This document shows, piece by piece, positions 1 to 9,870 of a DNA stretch of 10,324 nucleotides. The notes under the pieces are model-generated. The model was not told where the DNA came from, did no database searches, and saw only the letters and a list, made by a program, of their open reading frames with translations. Location: IMG/VR virus record IMGVR_UViG_2648501400_000005; one strand, written 5' to 3'. Within the stretch, counting starts at the first letter, position 1. Each line of letters starts with the position of its first letter. The position numbers and the translations under genes were made by a program. This stretch comes from a virus (taxonomy: Duplodnaviria; Heunggongvirae; Uroviricota; Caudoviricetes).

Positions 1-405
1 AATATCTGGAGCACTGGAGGTATCAACCAGTTCCAGTGCGTCCAGATAATCCAGCCACAAATTATATTGCACCAGTTCCTCACCTTTCAGGCGACCAATC
101 GCCGCTTTACCAGGCCATTGCTTACTGTTTATGTATTCGTTGACCTGATTAATCAATTGCTGCTTTTTCAGTTCGGCTGCGGCAATTTGTTCCTCATGAG
201 TTGGCGGTGGAATATCAATCCATGCAGGCATTCCGTCGATGACACCTCTGTATTTTCCTTCTGGTGCTTCCTTCATAAATTCGGCGGCAACAGTGTCGTC
301 AATTTCGATTCCATCATCGGGCCATTCGCCGGATTCCTGATAAGCGATTTTAAGCTCCACAGGGAAAAACGCATTTTTATCGGCACTGAAAATATATTTC
401 TGCAT
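1..405 (-). CDS. Tail fibre assembly protein (Tfa/U family); N-terminal 135 codons in window, C-terminus runs off the left edge
   Basis: My own translation of the minus strand from the ATG at 405-403 gives MQKYIFSADKNAFFPVELKIAYQESGEWPDDGIEIDD...ELVDTSSAPDI with no stop before position 1. The ending resembles the conserved Tfa C-terminal motif (lambda Tfa ...DTSTAPDIEWP). An SD-like AGGACGG lies just upstream on the minus strand. It is absent from the supplied ORF track because it leaves the window. Confidence 0.8.
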   Translation of the reverse strand, partial: MQKYIFSADKNAFFPVELKIAYQESGEWPDDGIEIDDTVAAEFMKEAPEGKYRGVIDGMPAWIDIPPPTHEEQIAAAELKKQQLINQVNEYINSKQWPGKAAIGRLKGEELVQYNLWLDYLDALELVDTSSAPDI

Positions 406-407
406 TT

Positions 408-806
408 CTACCGTCCTATCGAAATATAACTGAATCTGTATTGCTGTGAGATATCACTGGTTGCCACACGCCACGCTGAATTACTGATATGTTCAAAATT
501 TACAGACAAAACCTGCGGGGCAGGACTCGACGGGTCTGACTGAACGGCATCAGACATAACACTGACTGAAACCATCGGCTGATTAGGGAATGGTATAGGG
601 AAGTGTCCACTGATAAAGCGGGTCGTGTTTCCTGAAAAAGTGCCAAACTGAACAATATATCCACCTGGTAGCCTGAACCATCCCGAACCAGAAGCGAATG
701 CTCCCATATCCGGTATCTGATTATCTCCTGTGCCCACATCCCTTTTCGCCGCTTCTCCCAAACCAACGTTTATGAAAATGCAGAGATAACGGGCAACTGG
801 CATCAT
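408..806 (-). CDS. Tail fibre C-terminal variable segment (Mu S'v / e14 StfE-like cassette), probably the silent copy in the present orientation; the 5' boundary is not a real start
   Basis: Minus-strand ORF whose stop (410-408) sits 2 nt before the tfa ATG (405-403), suggesting coupling. The reading frame runs through the candidate crossover site at 753-778. Its position right next to the invertase gene matches the Mu G-segment and e14 layout. Assignment is by synteny; I cannot confirm homology by eye. Confidence 0.5.
   Translation of the reverse strand: MMPVARYLCIFINVGLGEAAKRDVGTGDNQIPDMGAFASGSGWFRLPGGYIVQFGTFSGNTTRFISGHFPIPFPNQPMVSVSVMSDAVQSDPSSPAPQVLSVNFEHISNSAWRVATSDISQQYRFSYISIGR
753..778. 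other. Candidate 26-bp DNA-invertase crossover site (hix/gix/pix-like) with central AA dinucleotide
   Basis: Sequence TTCTCCCAAACC-AA-CGTTTATGAAAA is an imperfect dyad. It closely resembles hixL as I recall it (TTCTTGAAAACCAAGGTTTTTGATAA). It lies about 55 bp upstream of the invertase start and inside the tail-fibre reading frame. Confidence 0.6.
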
Positions 807-833
807 CTCCGGTTTTTATTCAGGGGGATGCTC

Positions 834-1427
834 ATGCTTATTGGCTATGTACGCGTGTCAACAAATGACCAGAACACGGAATTGCAGCGTAACGCGCTGG
901 AGTGCGCAGGATGTGAGCTGATTTTTGAGGATAAAATCAGCGGCACTAAGTCCGACCGACCGGGACTGAAAAAACTGCTCAGGACATTATCGGAGGGGGA
1001 TACACTGGTGGTCTGGAAGCTGGACAGGCTGGGGCGTAGTATGCGGCATCTGGTCATTCTGGTTGAGGAACTGCGCGAACGCGGCGTTAATTTTCGCAGC
1101 CTGACGGATGCTATTGATACCAGCACGCCGATGGGGCGTTTTTTCTTTCATGTGATGGGTGCCCTGGCTGAAATGGAACGAGAACTCATTGTCGAGCGGA
1201 CACGCGCCGGACTGGAAGCGGCCAGAGCTAAAGGTCGTATTGGTGGCAGACGTCCGAAGCTCACCGCGAGTGAGTGGGAACAGGCAGGACGGTTGCTGGC
1301 TGCGGGTGAATCACGTCAACGCGTGGCGCTGATTTTTGATATTGGCCTGTCCACGCTCTATAAAAAATTCCCCTCATCAGCGACAAAAAATAAATTGTGC
1401 CATCCCTTAGCCAACCGGGACAAATAG
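834..1427 (+). CDS. Serine recombinase, DNA invertase of the Gin/Cin/Pin/Hin family
   Basis: Translation MLIGYVRVSTNDQNT...DRPGLKKLL...VVWKLDRLGRS...MGRFFFHVMGALAEMERELI...GRIGGRRPKL...LSTLYKK has the catalytic-serine motif (YVRVSTNDQ) and a C-terminal HTH typical of Gin/Pin. The start is set at ATG 834 (GGGGGA 823-828, 5-nt spacer), not the track's ATG 828, which has no spacer. Confidence 0.9.
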   Translation: MLIGYVRVSTNDQNTELQRNALECAGCELIFEDKISGTKSDRPGLKKLLRTLSEGDTLVVWKLDRLGRSMRHLVILVEELRERGVNFRSLTDAIDTSTPMGRFFFHVMGALAEMERELIVERTRAGLEAARAKGRIGGRRPKLTASEWEQAGRLLAAGESRQRVALIFDIGLSTLYKKFPSSATKNKLCHPLANRDK

Positions 1428-1486
1428 CCTGACATCTCCGGCACAACTGAAAATATCACTCACCCATTAACCACGGAGTTAAACGG

Positions 1487-2677
1487 ATGAGTGACTATCA
1501 TCACGGCGTGCAGGTGCTGGAGATTAACGACGGCACCCGTGTCATTTCCACCGTATCCACTGCCATTGTTGGCATGGTCTGCACGGCCAGCGATGCGGAT
1601 GCGGAAACCTTCCCCCTCAATAAACCGGTGCTGATTACCAATGTGCAGAGCGCAATTGCAAAGGCCGGTAAAAAAGGCACGCTGGCGGCATCGTTGCAGG
1701 CTATCGCCGACCAGTCAAAACCGGTCACCGTTGTTGTGCGCGTGGAGGACGGCACCGGCGACGACGAAGAAACGAAACTTGCGCAGACCGTTTCCAATAT
1801 CATCGGCACCACCGACGAAAACGGTCAGTACACCGGACTGAAAGCCCTGCTGGCGGCGGAGTCAGTAACCGGTGTTAAACCGCGTATTCTCGGCGTGCCG
1901 GGACTGGACACCAAAGAGGTGGCTGTTGCACTGGCATCAGTCTGTCAGAAGCTGCGCGCTTTCGGGTATATCAGCGCATGGGGCTGTAAGACCATTTCCG
2001 AGGTGAAAGCCTACCGCCAGAATTTCAGCCAGCGTGAGCTGATGGTCATCTGGCCGGATTTCCTCGCATGGGATACGGTCGCCAGTACCACCGCCACCGC
2101 GTATGCCACCGCCCGTGCGCTGGGCCTGCGCGCTAAAATCGACCAGGAGCAGGGCTGGCATAAAACGCTGTCCAACGTCGGGGTAAACGGTGTTACCGGC
2201 ATCAGTGCCTCTGTATTCTGGGATTTGCAGGAGTCCGGCACCGATGCTGACCTGTTGAACGAGTCAGGTGTCACAACGTTGATTCGCCGTGACGGTTTCC
2301 GCTTCTGGAGTAACCGTACCTGCTCGGATGACCCGCTGTTCCTCTTTGAAAACTATACCCGCACCGCGCAGGTGCTGGCCGACACGATGGCTGAGGCGCA
2401 CATGTGGGCGGTGGACAAGCCCATCACCGCAACGCTGATTCGCGACATTGTTGACGGCATCAATGCCAAATTCCGTGAGCTGAAAACAAACGGCTATATC
2501 GTGGATGCGACCTGCTGGTTCAGCGAAGAATCCAACGATGCGGAAACCCTCAAGGCCGGAAAACTGTATATCGACTACGACTATACACCGGTGCCTCCTC
2601 TTGAAAACCTGACCCTGCGCCAGCGTATTACCGATAAATACCTGGCAAATCTGGTCACCTCGGTTAACAGCAATTAA
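1487..2677 (+). CDS. FI: Contractile tail sheath protein (P2 gpFI homologue)
   Basis: 396-aa ORF beginning MSDYHHGVQVLEINDGTRVISTV..., recognisable as P2 FI. GGAG lies upstream of the ATG. It is the first gene of the FI-FII-E-T-U-D block. Confidence 0.93.
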   Translation: MSDYHHGVQVLEINDGTRVISTVSTAIVGMVCTASDADAETFPLNKPVLITNVQSAIAKAGKKGTLAASLQAIADQSKPVTVVVRVEDGTGDDEETKLAQTVSNIIGTTDENGQYTGLKALLAAESVTGVKPRILGVPGLDTKEVAVALASVCQKLRAFGYISAWGCKTISEVKAYRQNFSQRELMVIWPDFLAWDTVASTTATAYATARALGLRAKIDQEQGWHKTLSNVGVNGVTGISASVFWDLQESGTDADLLNESGVTTLIRRDGFRFWSNRTCSDDPLFLFENYTRTAQVLADTMAEAHMWAVDKPITATLIRDIVDGINAKFRELKTNGYIVDATCWFSEESNDAETLKAGKLYIDYDYTPVPPLENLTLRQRITDKYLANLVTSVNSN

Positions 2678-3264: not shown

Positions 3265-3540
3265 ATGAACAAAGAAAATGTGATTACCCTGGACAATCCG
3301 GTCAAGCGTGGTGAGCAGGTTATCGAACAGGTCACGCTGATGAAACCTAATGCCGGGACGCTGCGCGGTGTCAGTCTGGCTGCGGTCGCGAACTCCGAAG
3401 TCGATGCACTGATTAAGGTGCTGCCGCGCATGACGGCACCGATGCTGACCGAGCAGGAAGTCGCCGCGCTGGAACTGCCTGACCTTGTGGCGCTGGCCGG
3501 TAAGGTGGTCGGTTTTTTGTCGCCGAACTCGGTGCGGTAA
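3265..3540 (+). CDS. E: Tail assembly chaperone E (P2 gpE homologue), zero-frame product
   Basis: 91-aa ORF MNKENVITLDNPVKRGEQVIEQVTLMKPNAG... in the position and at the size of P2 E. It contains a T6G slippery run near its 3' end. Confidence 0.9.
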   Translation: MNKENVITLDNPVKRGEQVIEQVTLMKPNAGTLRGVSLAAVANSEVDALIKVLPRMTAPMLTEQEVAALELPDLVALAGKVVGFLSPNSVR

Positions 3541-3692: not shown

Positions 3693-6132
3693 CAATGTAA
3701 AATTACAGGTATTGCTCAGGGCTGTTGACCAGGCATCCCGCCCGTTTAAATCCATCCGCACAGCGAGTAAGTCGCTGTCGGGGGATATCCGGGAAACACA
3801 AAAATCACTGCGCGAGCTGAACGGTCACGCATCCCGTATTGAGGGATTTCGCAAGACCAGCGCACAGCTTGCCGTGACTGGTCATGCACTTGAAAAGGCA
3901 CGGCAGGAAGCCGAAGCCCTTGCCACACAGTTTAAAAACACTGAACGTCCGACCCGTGCTCAGGCGAAAGTGCTGGAATCCGCAAAGCGTGCGGCGGAGG
4001 ACTTACAGGCGAAATATAACCGCCTGACAGATTCCATTAAACGCCAGCAGCGGGAACTGGCCGCTGTGGGAATTAATACCCGCAATCTTGCACATGATGA
4101 GCAGGGACTGAAAAACCGTATCAGTGAAACCACCGCACAGCTTAACCGTCAGCGTGACGCGCTGGCGCGTGTCAGTGCACAACAGGCAAAACTTAACGCA
4201 GTAAAACAGCGTTATCAGGCCGGAAAGGAACTGGCCGGAAATATGGCCTCAGTGGGCGCTGCCGGTGTGGGGATTGCTGCTGCGGGAACGATGGCCGGAG
4301 TTAAGTTGCTGATGCCCGGTTATGAGTTTGCGCAGAAAAACTCAGAATTGCAGGCTGTGCTCGGTGTGGCAAAAGACTCCGCCGAAATGACCGCACTACG
4401 CAAACAGGCGCGCCAGCTCGGCGACAATACCGCCGCCTCGGCGAATGATGCGGCCGGTGCACAGATAATCATCGCGAAAGCGGGTGGGGATGTTGATGCC
4501 ATTCAGGCGGCAACGCCGGTCACGCTGAATATGGCGCTGGCGAACCGCCGCACGATGGAAGAAAACGCCGCCCTGCTGATGGGGATGAAATCCGCCTTTC
4601 AGCTTTCAAACGATAAGGTCGCTCATATCGGGGATGTTCTCTCCATGACGATGAACAAAACCGCCGCCGATTTTGACGGCATGAGCGATGCGCTGACCTA
4701 TGCCGCACCTGTGGCAAAAAATGCCGGTGTCAGCATTGAAGAAACCGCCGCAATGGTCGGGGCGCTGCATGATGCAAAAATCACAGGCTCAATGGCGGGG
4801 ACGGGAAGCCGTGCCGTGTTAAGCCGCCTGCAGGCACCGACGGGAAAAGCATGGGATGCACTCAAAGAGCTTGGAGTGAAAACCTCAGACAGCAAGGGAA
4901 ACACCCGGCCAATATTTACCATTCTGAAAGAAATGCAGGCCAGTTTTGAGAAAAACCGGCTCGGTACTGCCCAGCAGGCTGAATACATGAAAACTATTTT
5001 CGGGGAGGAGGCCAGCTCAGCCGCCGCCGTGCTGATGACTGCCGCCTCAACCGGAAAGCTGGACAAACTGACCGCTGCGTTTAAAGCCTCAGACGGGAAG
5101 ACCGCCGAGCTGGTAAATATCATGCAGGACAACCTAGGCGGTGACTTTAAGGAGTTTCAGTCCGCTTATGAGGCGGTGGGGACTGACCTGTTTGACCAGC
5201 AGGAAGGCGCACTGCGTAAGCTCACGCAGACGGCCACAAAGTATGTGTTAAAACTCGACGGCTGGATACAGAAAAACAAATCACTGGCGTCAACCATCGG
5301 CATCATTGTCGGTGGTGCACTGGCGCTGACTGGTGTCATCGGTGCCATTGGCCTCATAGCCTGGCCGGTTATCACCGGCATCAATGCCATCATCGCGGCA
5401 GCAGGCGCAATGGGGGCAATCTTCACGACGGTTGGCAGTGCTGTTATGACCGCCATCGGGGCGATTAGCTGGCCGGTTGTGGCCGTGGTGGCCGCCATTG
5501 TCGCCGGGGCGTTGCTTATCCGTAAATACTGGGAGCCTGTCAGCGCATTCTTTGGCGGTGTGGTGGAAGGGCTGAAAGCGGCATTTGCGCCGGTGGGGGA
5601 ACTGTTCACGCCACTGAAACCGGTGTTTGACTGGCTGGGCGAAAAGTTACAGGCCGCGTGGCAGTGGTTTACAAACCTGATTGCTCCGGTTAAAGCCACC
5701 CAGGACACCCTGAACCGTTGCCGTGATACGGGCGTCATGTTCGGGCAGGCACTGGCTGACGCGCTGATGCTGCCGCTTAATGCGTTCAACAAACTGCGCA
5801 GCGGTATTGACTGGGTACTGGAAAAACTCGGTGTTATCAACAAAGAGTCAGACACACTTGACCAGACCGCCGCCAGAACTCATGCCGCCACGTATGGCAC
5901 CGGTGGTTATATTCCGGCGACCAGCTCTTATGCAGGCTATCAGGCTTATCAGCCGGTCACGGCACCGGCTGGCCGCTCTTATGTGGACCAGAGTAAAAAC
6001 GAATATCACATCAGCCTGACGGGTGGTACTGCGCCGGGGACACAGCTCGACCGCCAGTTACAGGATGCGCTCGAAAAATACGAGCGGGATAAACGTGCGC
6101 GCGCCCGTGCCAGCATGATGCATGACGGTTAA
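3685..6132 (+). CDS. T: Tail tape measure protein (P2 gpT homologue)
   Basis: 815-aa ORF with an N-terminal coiled-coil-like, Q/A/K/R-rich region, a central Ala/Gly-rich hydrophobic stretch (GIIVGGALALTGVIGAIGLIAWPV...) and the P2 T length. It immediately follows E/E'. Confidence 0.9.
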   Translation: MSNNVKLQVLLRAVDQASRPFKSIRTASKSLSGDIRETQKSLRELNGHASRIEGFRKTSAQLAVTGHALEKARQEAEALATQFKNTERPTRAQAKVLESAKRAAEDLQAKYNRLTDSIKRQQRELAAVGINTRNLAHDEQGLKNRISETTAQLNRQRDALARVSAQQAKLNAVKQRYQAGKELAGNMASVGAAGVGIAAAGTMAGVKLLMPGYEFAQKNSELQAVLGVAKDSAEMTALRKQARQLGDNTAASANDAAGAQIIIAKAGGDVDAIQAATPVTLNMALANRRTMEENAALLMGMKSAFQLSNDKVAHIGDVLSMTMNKTAADFDGMSDALTYAAPVAKNAGVSIEETAAMVGALHDAKITGSMAGTGSRAVLSRLQAPTGKAWDALKELGVKTSDSKGNTRPIFTILKEMQASFEKNRLGTAQQAEYMKTIFGEEASSAAAVLMTAASTGKLDKLTAAFKASDGKTAELVNIMQDNLGGDFKEFQSAYEAVGTDLFDQQEGALRKLTQTATKYVLKLDGWIQKNKSLASTIGIIVGGALALTGVIGAIGLIAWPVITGINAIIAAAGAMGAIFTTVGSAVMTAIGAISWPVVAVVAAIVAGALLIRKYWEPVSAFFGGVVEGLKAAFAPVGELFTPLKPVFDWLGEKLQAAWQWFTNLIAPVKATQDTLNRCRDTGVMFGQALADALMLPLNAFNKLRSGIDWVLEKLGVINKESDTLDQTAARTHAATYGTGGYIPATSSYAGYQAYQPVTAPAGRSYVDQSKNEYHISLTGGTAPGTQLDRQLQDALEKYERDKRARARASMMHDG

Positions 6133-7870: not shown

Positions 7871-8089
7871 ATGTTTCATTGTCCTTTATGCCAGCATGCC
7901 GCACATGCGCGTACAAGTCGCTATATCACTGACACGACAAAAGAGCGTTATCACCAGTGTCAGAACGTGAATTGCAGCGCCACGTTCATCACTTATGAGT
8001 CTGTACAGCGATACATTGTGAAGCCGGGAGAAGTCCACGCCGTGAGGCCGCACCCGTTGCCGTCAGGGCAGCAAATTATGTGGATGTAA
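7871..8089 (+). CDS. ogr: Ogr, zinc-finger activator of P2 late transcription (72 aa)
   Basis: MFHCPLCQHAAHARTSRYITDTTKERYHQCQNVNCSATF... has the Cys4 arrangement C-X2-C-X22-C-X4-C of Ogr/Delta proteins. The track ORF begins at a TTG (7808), but the recognisable Ogr N-terminus begins at ATG 7871. Confidence 0.9.
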   Translation: MFHCPLCQHAAHARTSRYITDTTKERYHQCQNVNCSATFITYESVQRYIVKPGEVHAVRPHPLPSGQQIMWM

Positions 8090-8101
8090 TTACAAACAGA
8101 A

Positions 8102-8127
8102 AGCCCCTCAGTCGAGGGGCTTTTTTT
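8102..8127 (+). terminator. Rho-independent terminator downstream of ogr
   Basis: Perfect 7-bp GC-rich stem GCCCCTC/GAGGGGC (8103-8109 and 8114-8120) with loop AGTC, followed by seven T (8121-8127). Confidence 0.75.
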
Positions 8128-8191
8128 GTCGATGTGGTCAATGTGTGGACGTGACCAGAAATAAATCCTTTTATTTCAATTTGTTGTACGT

Positions 8192-8218
8192 AAAAAATAA
8201 GCCCGTGTAAGGGAGATT
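8192..8218. other. Prophage attR core (P2-type att core), overlapping the 3' end of cyaR
   Basis: AAAAAATAAGCCCGTGTAAGGGAGATT matches the 27-nt P2 att core as I recall it. It sits at the boundary between the phage gene ogr and the host gene yegQ. Confidence 0.55.
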
Positions 8219-8278
8219 ACACAGGCTAAGGAGGTGGTTCCTGGTACAGCTAGCATTTTATGGGTTATGTTTTTCAGC
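8192..8278 (-). ncRNA. cyaR: CyaR (RyeE) Hfq-dependent small RNA
   Basis: The reverse complement reads GCTGAAAAACATAACCCATAAAATGCTAGCTGTACCAGGAACCACCTCCTTAGCCTGTGTAATCTCCCTTACACGGGCTTATTTTTT, matching E. coli CyaR as I recall it. It includes the CCUCCUUA anti-SD-like seed and a terminator hairpin plus U-tract. This is the known yegQ-ogr intergenic location. Confidence 0.8.
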
Positions 8279-8312
8279 GAAACGGATGATAACCTTAATA
8301 AATGCAGCTGTA

Positions 8313-8328
8313 TGTGATCGGTTTCTAA
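8313..8328 (-). promoter_or_regulatory. Candidate CRP site (TGTGA-N6-TCTAA) about 42 bp upstream of the cyaR 5' end
   Basis: Perfect TGTGA half-site and a 3/5 second half-site, at class II spacing from the inferred cyaR start at 8278. CyaR is known to be CRP-cAMP activated. Confidence 0.4.
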
Positions 8329-8362
8329 GAATTTTCCATCCGGGAAAAATAATCGAAATTAA

Positions 8363-9724: not shown

Positions 9725-9870
9725 AATTCTCTCGTTCTGATGACAGGTCAGAGCCGCTTCACCTGATGAAGCGGTTAGGGGAGTGCCCCCACTTTAAGGG
9801 CGGGCATTGTAGCGCTGTGGGGGTAACTGGTAAAGCGCCGGACGCCAACAACCTACGCCCGGCATCGTAA

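Follow-up and report, generated by a model that had tools for sequence, protein, structure and literature searches.

The 26-mer TTCTCCCAAACCAACGTTTATGAAAA occupies positions 753-778 (+ strand) of the 10,324-nt viral DNA stretch analysed here (IMG/VR record IMGVR_UViG_2648501400_000005; hereafter, the window). It is embedded in a minus-strand open reading frame (ORF), close to a serine invertase gene, which raises the question of whether it is a crossover site at which DNA inversion joins a tail-fibre gene to alternative ends. An earlier reading, made from the sequence alone, had proposed a hix/gix-like site of the Hin/Gin type; the coordinates and sequence that it gave, the dyad around a central AA and the residues quoted from the overlapping frame are all correct. 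We conclude that 753-778 is, with high probability, the pixR-type crossover site on the invertase side of a Din-family inversion switch carried by a P2-like prophage. The features discussed below are, in window coordinates:

1..405, minus strand: tail-fibre assembly (chaperone) gene that goes with the adjacent cassette (Caudo_TAP, E 7e-30)
408..764, minus strand: alternative tail-fibre C-terminal cassette, GLGE-AAKRDVGTG...ISIGR, with a gp53-like receptor-binding domain (from translation, Gp53-like_C match and in-frame fusion)
752..766: 15-nt arm CTTCTCCCAAACCAA, repeated perfectly and in inverse orientation at the partner site of related prophages
753..778: 26-bp crossover site, present, unique and identical (26/26) to published pixR
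753-764: inner half-site, inside the invertible segment
765-766: core dinucleotide AA
767-778: outer half-site, outside the segment, on the invertase side
779..833: 55-bp spacer from the site to the invertase start codon, the minus strand of which carries an in-frame ATG-ATG leader (MMPVARYLC...)
834..1427, plus strand: serine DNA invertase gene, 197 aa, Pin/Gin/Cin/Hin (Din) family (Resolvase plus HTH_7)
855..918: candidate recombinational enhancer within the invertase gene, at its 5' end, with two G-N13-C 15-mers (855-869 and 904-918)

Sequence of the crossover site

The site is laid out as TTCTCCCAAACC AA CGTTTATGAAAA and is unique in the window even when up to three mismatches are allowed, with zero occurrences expected from 200 shuffles. 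The two halves form an imperfect dyad, TTCTCCCAAACC and the reverse complement of the right half, TTTTCATAAACG, agreeing at 8 of 12 positions around the central AA. A dyad of this quality might have arisen by chance in coding sequence and play no role in recombination, and the window has many short, imperfect inverted repeats. We consider the chances of this minimal, given the identity of the 26-mer to a characterised site, the invertase gene 55 bp away and the recombination evidence reported below.

Identities were counted against the published table of Din-family sites (PMC3241671, Table 3), in which pixR is listed as TTCTCCCAAACC AA CGTTTATGAAAA. The window site is identical to pixR at all 26 positions, to pixL at 21, to hixL at 20, to cixL and cixR at 19 each and to gix at 17. 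The AA core is that of hix, cix and pix, while the core of gix is GA. The label hix/gix-like, for which alignment to hix, gix and cix had been suggested as a check, is therefore right in kind, and the precise name is pixR. TTC, AAAC, a core -A and GTTT, the marks of Din-family sites, are all present; the terminal GAA of the family is AAA in 753-778, as it is in pixR. The sequence is that of a Din-family (Hin/Gin/Cin/Pin) crossover site.

The identical 26-mer adjoins pinE in the e14 element of E. coli K-12. The pixR and pixL sites and PinE of the e14 P segment are credited to Plasterk and van de Putte (1985) in PMC4272514 and PMC3241671, and the pixR sequence, as cited there, was already published in that year. 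The exact 26-mer also occurs in at least 120 IMG/VR viral contigs, and an invertase 5' motif follows it in 108 of 112 cases among the matches listed. When bacteria were represented by one genome per species, the exact site was found only in E. coli and Shigella flexneri records; the three representative genomes carrying it contain different prophages.

The invertase gene and a candidate enhancer

The gene at 834-1427 is intact and full length, with a 55-bp gap separating it from the site to its left. Its product is a small serine recombinase with an N-terminal catalytic and a C-terminal helix-turn-helix domain, as evidenced by Pfam matches to Resolvase (E 2e-52) and HTH_7. It is 87% identical to PinE and 80% identical to Gin; the best structure matches are the Gin structures 3UJ3 and 4M6F (E about 1e-94), and Hin's DNA-binding domain bound to hix (1HCR) aligns to residues 139-188. 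The catalytic Ser9 is present (VRVSTNDQ). Residues Q151, R154 and L155 of Hin, along with the basic residues 47, 48 and 51, are conserved only in Fis/enhancer-dependent invertases (PMC3798978). Their equivalents in the window protein are Q150, R153 and L154, and the helix-B basic residues K46, K47 and R50, with an offset of -1 relative to Hin taken from the 1HCR alignment. Judged by these residues, the window protein belongs with the Fis/enhancer-dependent invertases.

The gin enhancer lies within the 5' end of the gin gene. G-N13-C 15-mers are found at gene positions +22 and +71 in the window invertase gene, and pinE and gin carry them at equal positions. The mean column identity among window, e14 and Mu is 84% over the stretch running from the site to about 170 bp into the invertase gene. 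The two 15-mers are 49 bp apart, start to start, which departs from the 48 bp of Hin. The strict Fis pattern GNNYRNNWNNYRNNC fits the second 15-mer only (904-918). From the crossover core to the centre of the first 15-mer the distance is about 96 bp, compared with about 100 bp between hix and the Hin enhancer in the native arrangement (PMC3798978). Region 855-918 may hence be regarded as a candidate recombinational enhancer.

Genetic context

To the right of the invertase gene, the window carries a P2-type tail module comprising sheath FI, tube FII, chaperone E, tape measure T, U, D and ogr. The assignments are based on Pfam matches (sheath, tube, TAC_7, tape measure, GpU, GPD and Ogr_Delta), and the annotation of relatives is concordant. 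The gene order, H-G-(invertase)-FI-FII-E/E'-T-U-D-ogr, is that of P2-like phages (Peduovirus). The window thus covers the right-hand half of an invertible fibre segment, together with the invertase. Host genes, yegQ and a yegP-like gene, follow the tail module.

Three further observations concern this region. The tail assembly chaperone E (Phage_TAC_7) spans 3265-3540 and is followed by a short overlapping ORF, to 3692, that the annotation of relatives assigns to the GpE family; the layout is that expected for P2 E/E+E' with its programmed -1 frameshift. The prophage-host junction maps to 8090-8362, between the end of ogr at 8089 and the minus-strand gene yegQ (peptidase U32), which runs from 9724 to 8363; the right attachment site should therefore lie in this gap of ~270 bp. 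Between yegQ and yegP, the window has a 146-bp gap (9725-9870), where E. coli GF4-3 carries a ParE/RelE-ParD toxin-antitoxin pair (L007 12726-13622).

The partner site in related prophages

Within the window, searches for the 26-mer with up to three mismatches, for the core pattern AAACCNNNGTTT and for inverted repeats identified no partner site; the constant part of gene H is likewise absent from the window. A match at 5617 was considered and rejected, as it lies inside the tape-measure gene and has no flanking similarity.

Related prophages extend further to the left. Window 1-1500 matches 84 complete E. coli genomes (at least 80% of the length) at up to 99.3% identity, and a Salmonella Peduovirus at 97.6%. 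The best complete E. coli genome matches the window at 97.8%, and no 100% identical record was found. Partner sites were sought in three loci: E. coli F163 (L001; 99.3% over window 1-1500 and 97.6% over 8.2 kb), Salmonella phage MET_P1_103_31 (L002) and E. coli GF4-3 (L007; 98.1% over window 1-1500 and, at 97.8%, the closest relative over the whole window). The near-identical L001 prophage is integrated elsewhere, beside fieF/pfkA.

In all three, the longest inverted repeat pairs the window-type site with TTCTCGCATACC TT GGTTTGGGAGAA (+ strand), located inside the tail-fibre gene H, 1,803-1,857 nt upstream. Since its core on the + strand is TT, the partner is inverted, and reads TTCTCCCAAACC AA GGTATGCGAGAA on the other strand; inner half-site and AA core are equal to those of the window site, and the two sites have a perfect 15-nt arm in common. 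At the partner site, gene H runs ...SGKDVAGLLAYLGLGE|GSALPVGVPVPW.... From core to core, the segment contains two convergent cassettes, each composed of a fibre C-terminus and an assembly chaperone. The sequence-only reading had named an inverted partner with the same central dinucleotide as a check on its proposal, and such a partner is found in these prophages, of which those of E. coli are 97.6-97.8% identical to the window. Judging from these relatives, the window's own partner would lie beyond its left end, in a + strand H gene, with the expected pattern NNNNNNNNNNNN-TT-GGTTTGGGAGAA.

The same arrangement recurs in IMG/VR. Among the matches listed, an inverted partner with an AA core is present in 74 of the 78 contigs with at least 3 kb of left flank, at a distance of 1,455-4,093 nt (median 1,868). 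A few listed matches (L008-L127) have other configurations. For instance, the partner of five sites is a full pixR copy, resulting in a perfect 26-bp inverted repeat, one locus with two partners has three sites and is shufflon-like, and four loci have no partner within 6 kb.

The alternative tail-fibre cassette

The minus-strand frame through the site reads C-I-F-I-N-V-G-L-G-E-A-A-K and is part of ORF 806..408, which translates as MMPVARYLCIFINVGLGEAAKRDVGTG... and is annotated as a coding sequence (CDS) by NCBI in relatives. Residues 45-132 match Pfam Gp53-like_C, a tail-fibre C-terminal domain (E 3.3e-9). The site had been described as lying in frame within a minus-strand tail-fibre ORF. The frame is as described; tail-fibre sequence, in contrast, begins only at G-L-G-E, as I-F-I-N-V is encoded by the outer half-site and thus falls outside the invertible segment.

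Cassette 408..764, on the minus strand to the left of the site, is gp53-like and promoterless. It has no fibre N-terminus in the orientation of the window, in which it is the unexpressed cassette, and inversion would fuse it to the constant part of gene H (Hc). The associated chaperone gene (405..1) breaks off at the window's left edge, about 36 nt short of its stop codon; its counterpart in L001 is a 441-nt CDS, and its product is 52% identical to e14 TfaP. Joining the constant part of H to the window cassette at the core generates an open 394-aa fibre, ...LLAYLGLGE|AAKRDVGTGDNQIP...ISIGR. This in-frame fusion (Hc...LLAYLGLGE|AAKRDVGTG...) is annotated as a CDS in the flipped copy described below, which bears out the earlier idea that inversion fuses a constant N-terminal fibre part to alternative C-termini, the junction being GLGE.

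Equivalence of the window cassette to the StfP/StfE2 cassette of e14 was considered and rejected: the two share a Pfam family, but only the leader and the junction align (64% over 25 aa).

Natural inversion of the segment in related prophages

The two junctions predicted for the flipped state were built and searched against complete E. coli genomes. The flipped left junction (Hc plus the window cassette) was found as one contiguous match to the entire query (100%), with identities of up to 99.6%, and is present in 44 genomes (at least 80% coverage), versus 84 with the orientation of the window. The flipped right junction, which is common to e14-like elements, was found in 925 genomes.

E. coli F163 carries two copies of the related prophage, one per orientation (L001 and L003). 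Aligned as they stand, the copies show 1,327 differences over 6,001 bases, all within L001 6949-8751; this span is exactly the interval between the repeat arms, and corresponds to window 752 and leftwards. After in-silico reverse-complementing of L001 6934-8766, from core to core, 0 differences are left over 6,001 nt. The copies are therefore identical over the 6 kb compared, save for the orientation of a 1,833-bp segment, and the breakpoints fall within the perfect 15-nt arms (752-766 in window coordinates). Hence, inversion with breakpoints at the site occurs in near-identical prophages, and the search for junctions in sequencing data, an earlier suggestion, turned up the flipped state in sequenced genomes. 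The two F163 copies map to separate loci (NZ_OY754349.1 4629461-4646960 for L001 and 1770500-1776500 for L003), and could represent a double lysogen or an assembly duplication.

These data bear on two other explanations. A chance dyad is rejected on the basis of the identity to pixR, the inversion endpoints in F163, which lie inside the site, and the inverted partner recurring in 95% of independent contigs among the matches listed. Alternatively, the site might be a relic, kept because one half encodes the GLGE junction, in a segment frozen by a silent invertase or by loss of the partner. Cryptic elements such as e14, in which stfE is annotated as a pseudogene, do retain pix sites; the exact site has no detectable partner in 4 of 78 viral contigs among the matches listed, the window itself lacks a partner site and no promoter is predicted for the invertase. 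In contrast, the outer half-site (767-778) is conserved exactly though it encodes no fibre sequence, the invertase ORF is full length and keeps catalytic and Fis-contact residues, and the tail module looks complete. Moreover, the presence of otherwise identical prophage copies in both orientations implies recent activity. We consider a relic improbable, and an inversion switch of the Hin/Gin type, as first proposed, is the supported reading, with the partner of this particular genome deduced from relatives.

The leader and the spacer

ORF 806..408 opens with an ATG-ATG leader (806-801) that sits just outside the invertible segment (779-806). The leader, MMPxxRYxCIFINVGLGE, is kept in all 30 spacer variants listed, out of 36 distinct ones in viral contigs, and also in e14; the motif TGGCAT.AT in the spacer is invariant across window, e14 and Mu. 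The ORF might accordingly use this ATG as a start of its own and yield a free protein of 132 aa, composed of the leader and the gp53-like domain and analogous to StfE2 of e14, in which case inversion would toggle a defence or exclusion function. Conservation of the leader and annotation of the ORF as a CDS are in line with this notion. Moreover, StfE2 (125 aa, with leader and gp53-like domain) is claimed to be made in e14 and to block T2 adsorption, and lowers it according to the same report (PMC12529663).

Several features point the other way. The Shine-Dalgarno-like GGAG abuts the first ATG, with a spacing of 0-3 nt that is poor for initiation, and a scan of 650-1500 predicted no sigma-70 consensus promoter for either the invertase gene or the minus-strand ORF. 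Leader residues that vary among the listed spacer variants change non-synonymously, and beyond the leader the window protein has no sequence similarity to StfE2. The 55-bp spacer presumably holds the invertase promoter as well, even though none is predicted there, and the leader bases probably double as invertase promoter and 5' untranslated region (UTR), a role that would explain their conservation. The leader could mark where small StfE2-like proteins begin, or be no more than invertase promoter and 5' UTR. Independent expression of ORF 806..408 is unlikely, and so is the specific scenario in which the cassette is translated from the 806-801 leader and the gp53-like protein masks a surface receptor of the lysogen. 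If true, a single crossover site would toggle both the host range of the virion and superinfection exclusion by the lysogen. Expression of a free protein would add to the crossover-site explanation, not replace it.

A weak terminator-like stem-loop (AACTGGCATCATCTCCGGTT, followed by TTTATT) is located at 795-814 (+ strand), between the site and the invertase start, and overlaps the conserved TGGCATCAT.

Comparison with known inversion systems

The closest known system is the P segment of e14. This 1,797-bp segment has been shown experimentally to invert between 5'-TTGGTTTGGGAGAAGG and CCTTCTCCCAAACCAA; PinE catalyses the reaction, as do PinQ and PinR in trans (PMC12529663). The site-to-invertase spacer measures 55 bp in the window and 54 bp in e14, in equal orientation. 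The invertible segment (1,833 bp in the relatives of the window) similarly consists of two convergent cassettes, each with a fibre tip and a chaperone. One cassette is StfE-like (in relatives), the other gp53-like, and the GLGE junction is the same. The two systems differ in several respects. The window derives from an apparently complete P2-like (Peduovirus) prophage, whereas e14 is a defective lambdoid element. Because P2 gene H provides the constant part, the outer half of the partner site differs, being GGTATGCGAGAA in relatives and GGTTTTCGAGAG in pixL. The sequence of the gp53-like cassette diverges from StfP, the fibre tips being alignable over the first 25 residues only.

The G segment of Mu has the same Sc-[site-Sv-U / U'-Sv'-site]-invertase architecture. 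The invertases are 80% identical, the 5' end of the invertase gene is conserved as DNA, and the crossover site is in frame in the fibre gene. In contrast, the gix sites match at 17 of 26 positions, with a GA instead of an AA core, the G segment is 3 kb long and the fibre proteins are unrelated beyond the junction. The Hin system, which mediates flagellar phase variation in Salmonella, similarly features a 26-bp site made of two 12-bp half-sites and an AA core, an enhancer (a candidate in the window) about 100 bp from the proximal site, within the invertase gene, and the same Fis-contact residues. However, Hin flips a promoter together with its own gene, whereas here the invertase lies outside the segment and a coding-sequence fusion is switched.

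Invertible segments are known also in P2-like prophages. Those of EPEC E2348/69, as described in PMC4272514, and Fels-2 Fin, as cited in PMC12529663, resemble the window in element type and in their position between the fibre genes and FI. Phase variation of the EPEC fibre segments has been detected at read level (PMC4272514). One EPEC locus features three repeats and is shufflon-like, unlike the simple two-site form seen in the relatives of the window. The locus consequently adds one more example of a system already described, as is the sequence of its site, and is an ordinary feature. It is distinguished only by the P2-type constant part, and hence by the different outer half of the partner site, and by the divergent gp53-like cassette.

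Proposed mechanism and implications

The steps by which the segment would invert are modelled on the Hin/Gin mechanism (PMC3798978). An invertase dimer would bind each 26-bp site through the C-terminal helix-turn-helix domain, and the two sites would assemble with a Fis-bound enhancer, located within the invertase gene's 5' end, into an invertasome at a branch of supercoiled DNA. Ser9 would then cut all four strands at the central AA/TT with a 2-bp stagger. Rotation of one pair of subunits by 180 degrees and religation of the ends would leave the segment inverted, and the non-palindromic core would enforce inversion. We infer staggered 2-bp cleavage, phosphoserine linkage and dependence on supercoiling from the 80-87% identity to Gin and PinE.

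In one state, the constant N-terminal 276 residues of fibre H (...LLAYLGLGE) would be joined to the StfE-like tip. After flipping, the same constant part would be joined to the gp53-like tip (window 408-752), and the matching chaperone would be co-transcribed with whichever tip is joined.

For annotation, the 132-aa CDS found beside the invertase, recorded as phage tail protein or gp53-like, is best read as gene H's alternative C-terminal cassette. A 1.8-kb inversion may be a legitimate difference between assemblies of such prophages, and the host range predicted for the phage depends on the orientation that was sequenced. Two tail-fibre tips would provide the phage progeny with two host ranges.
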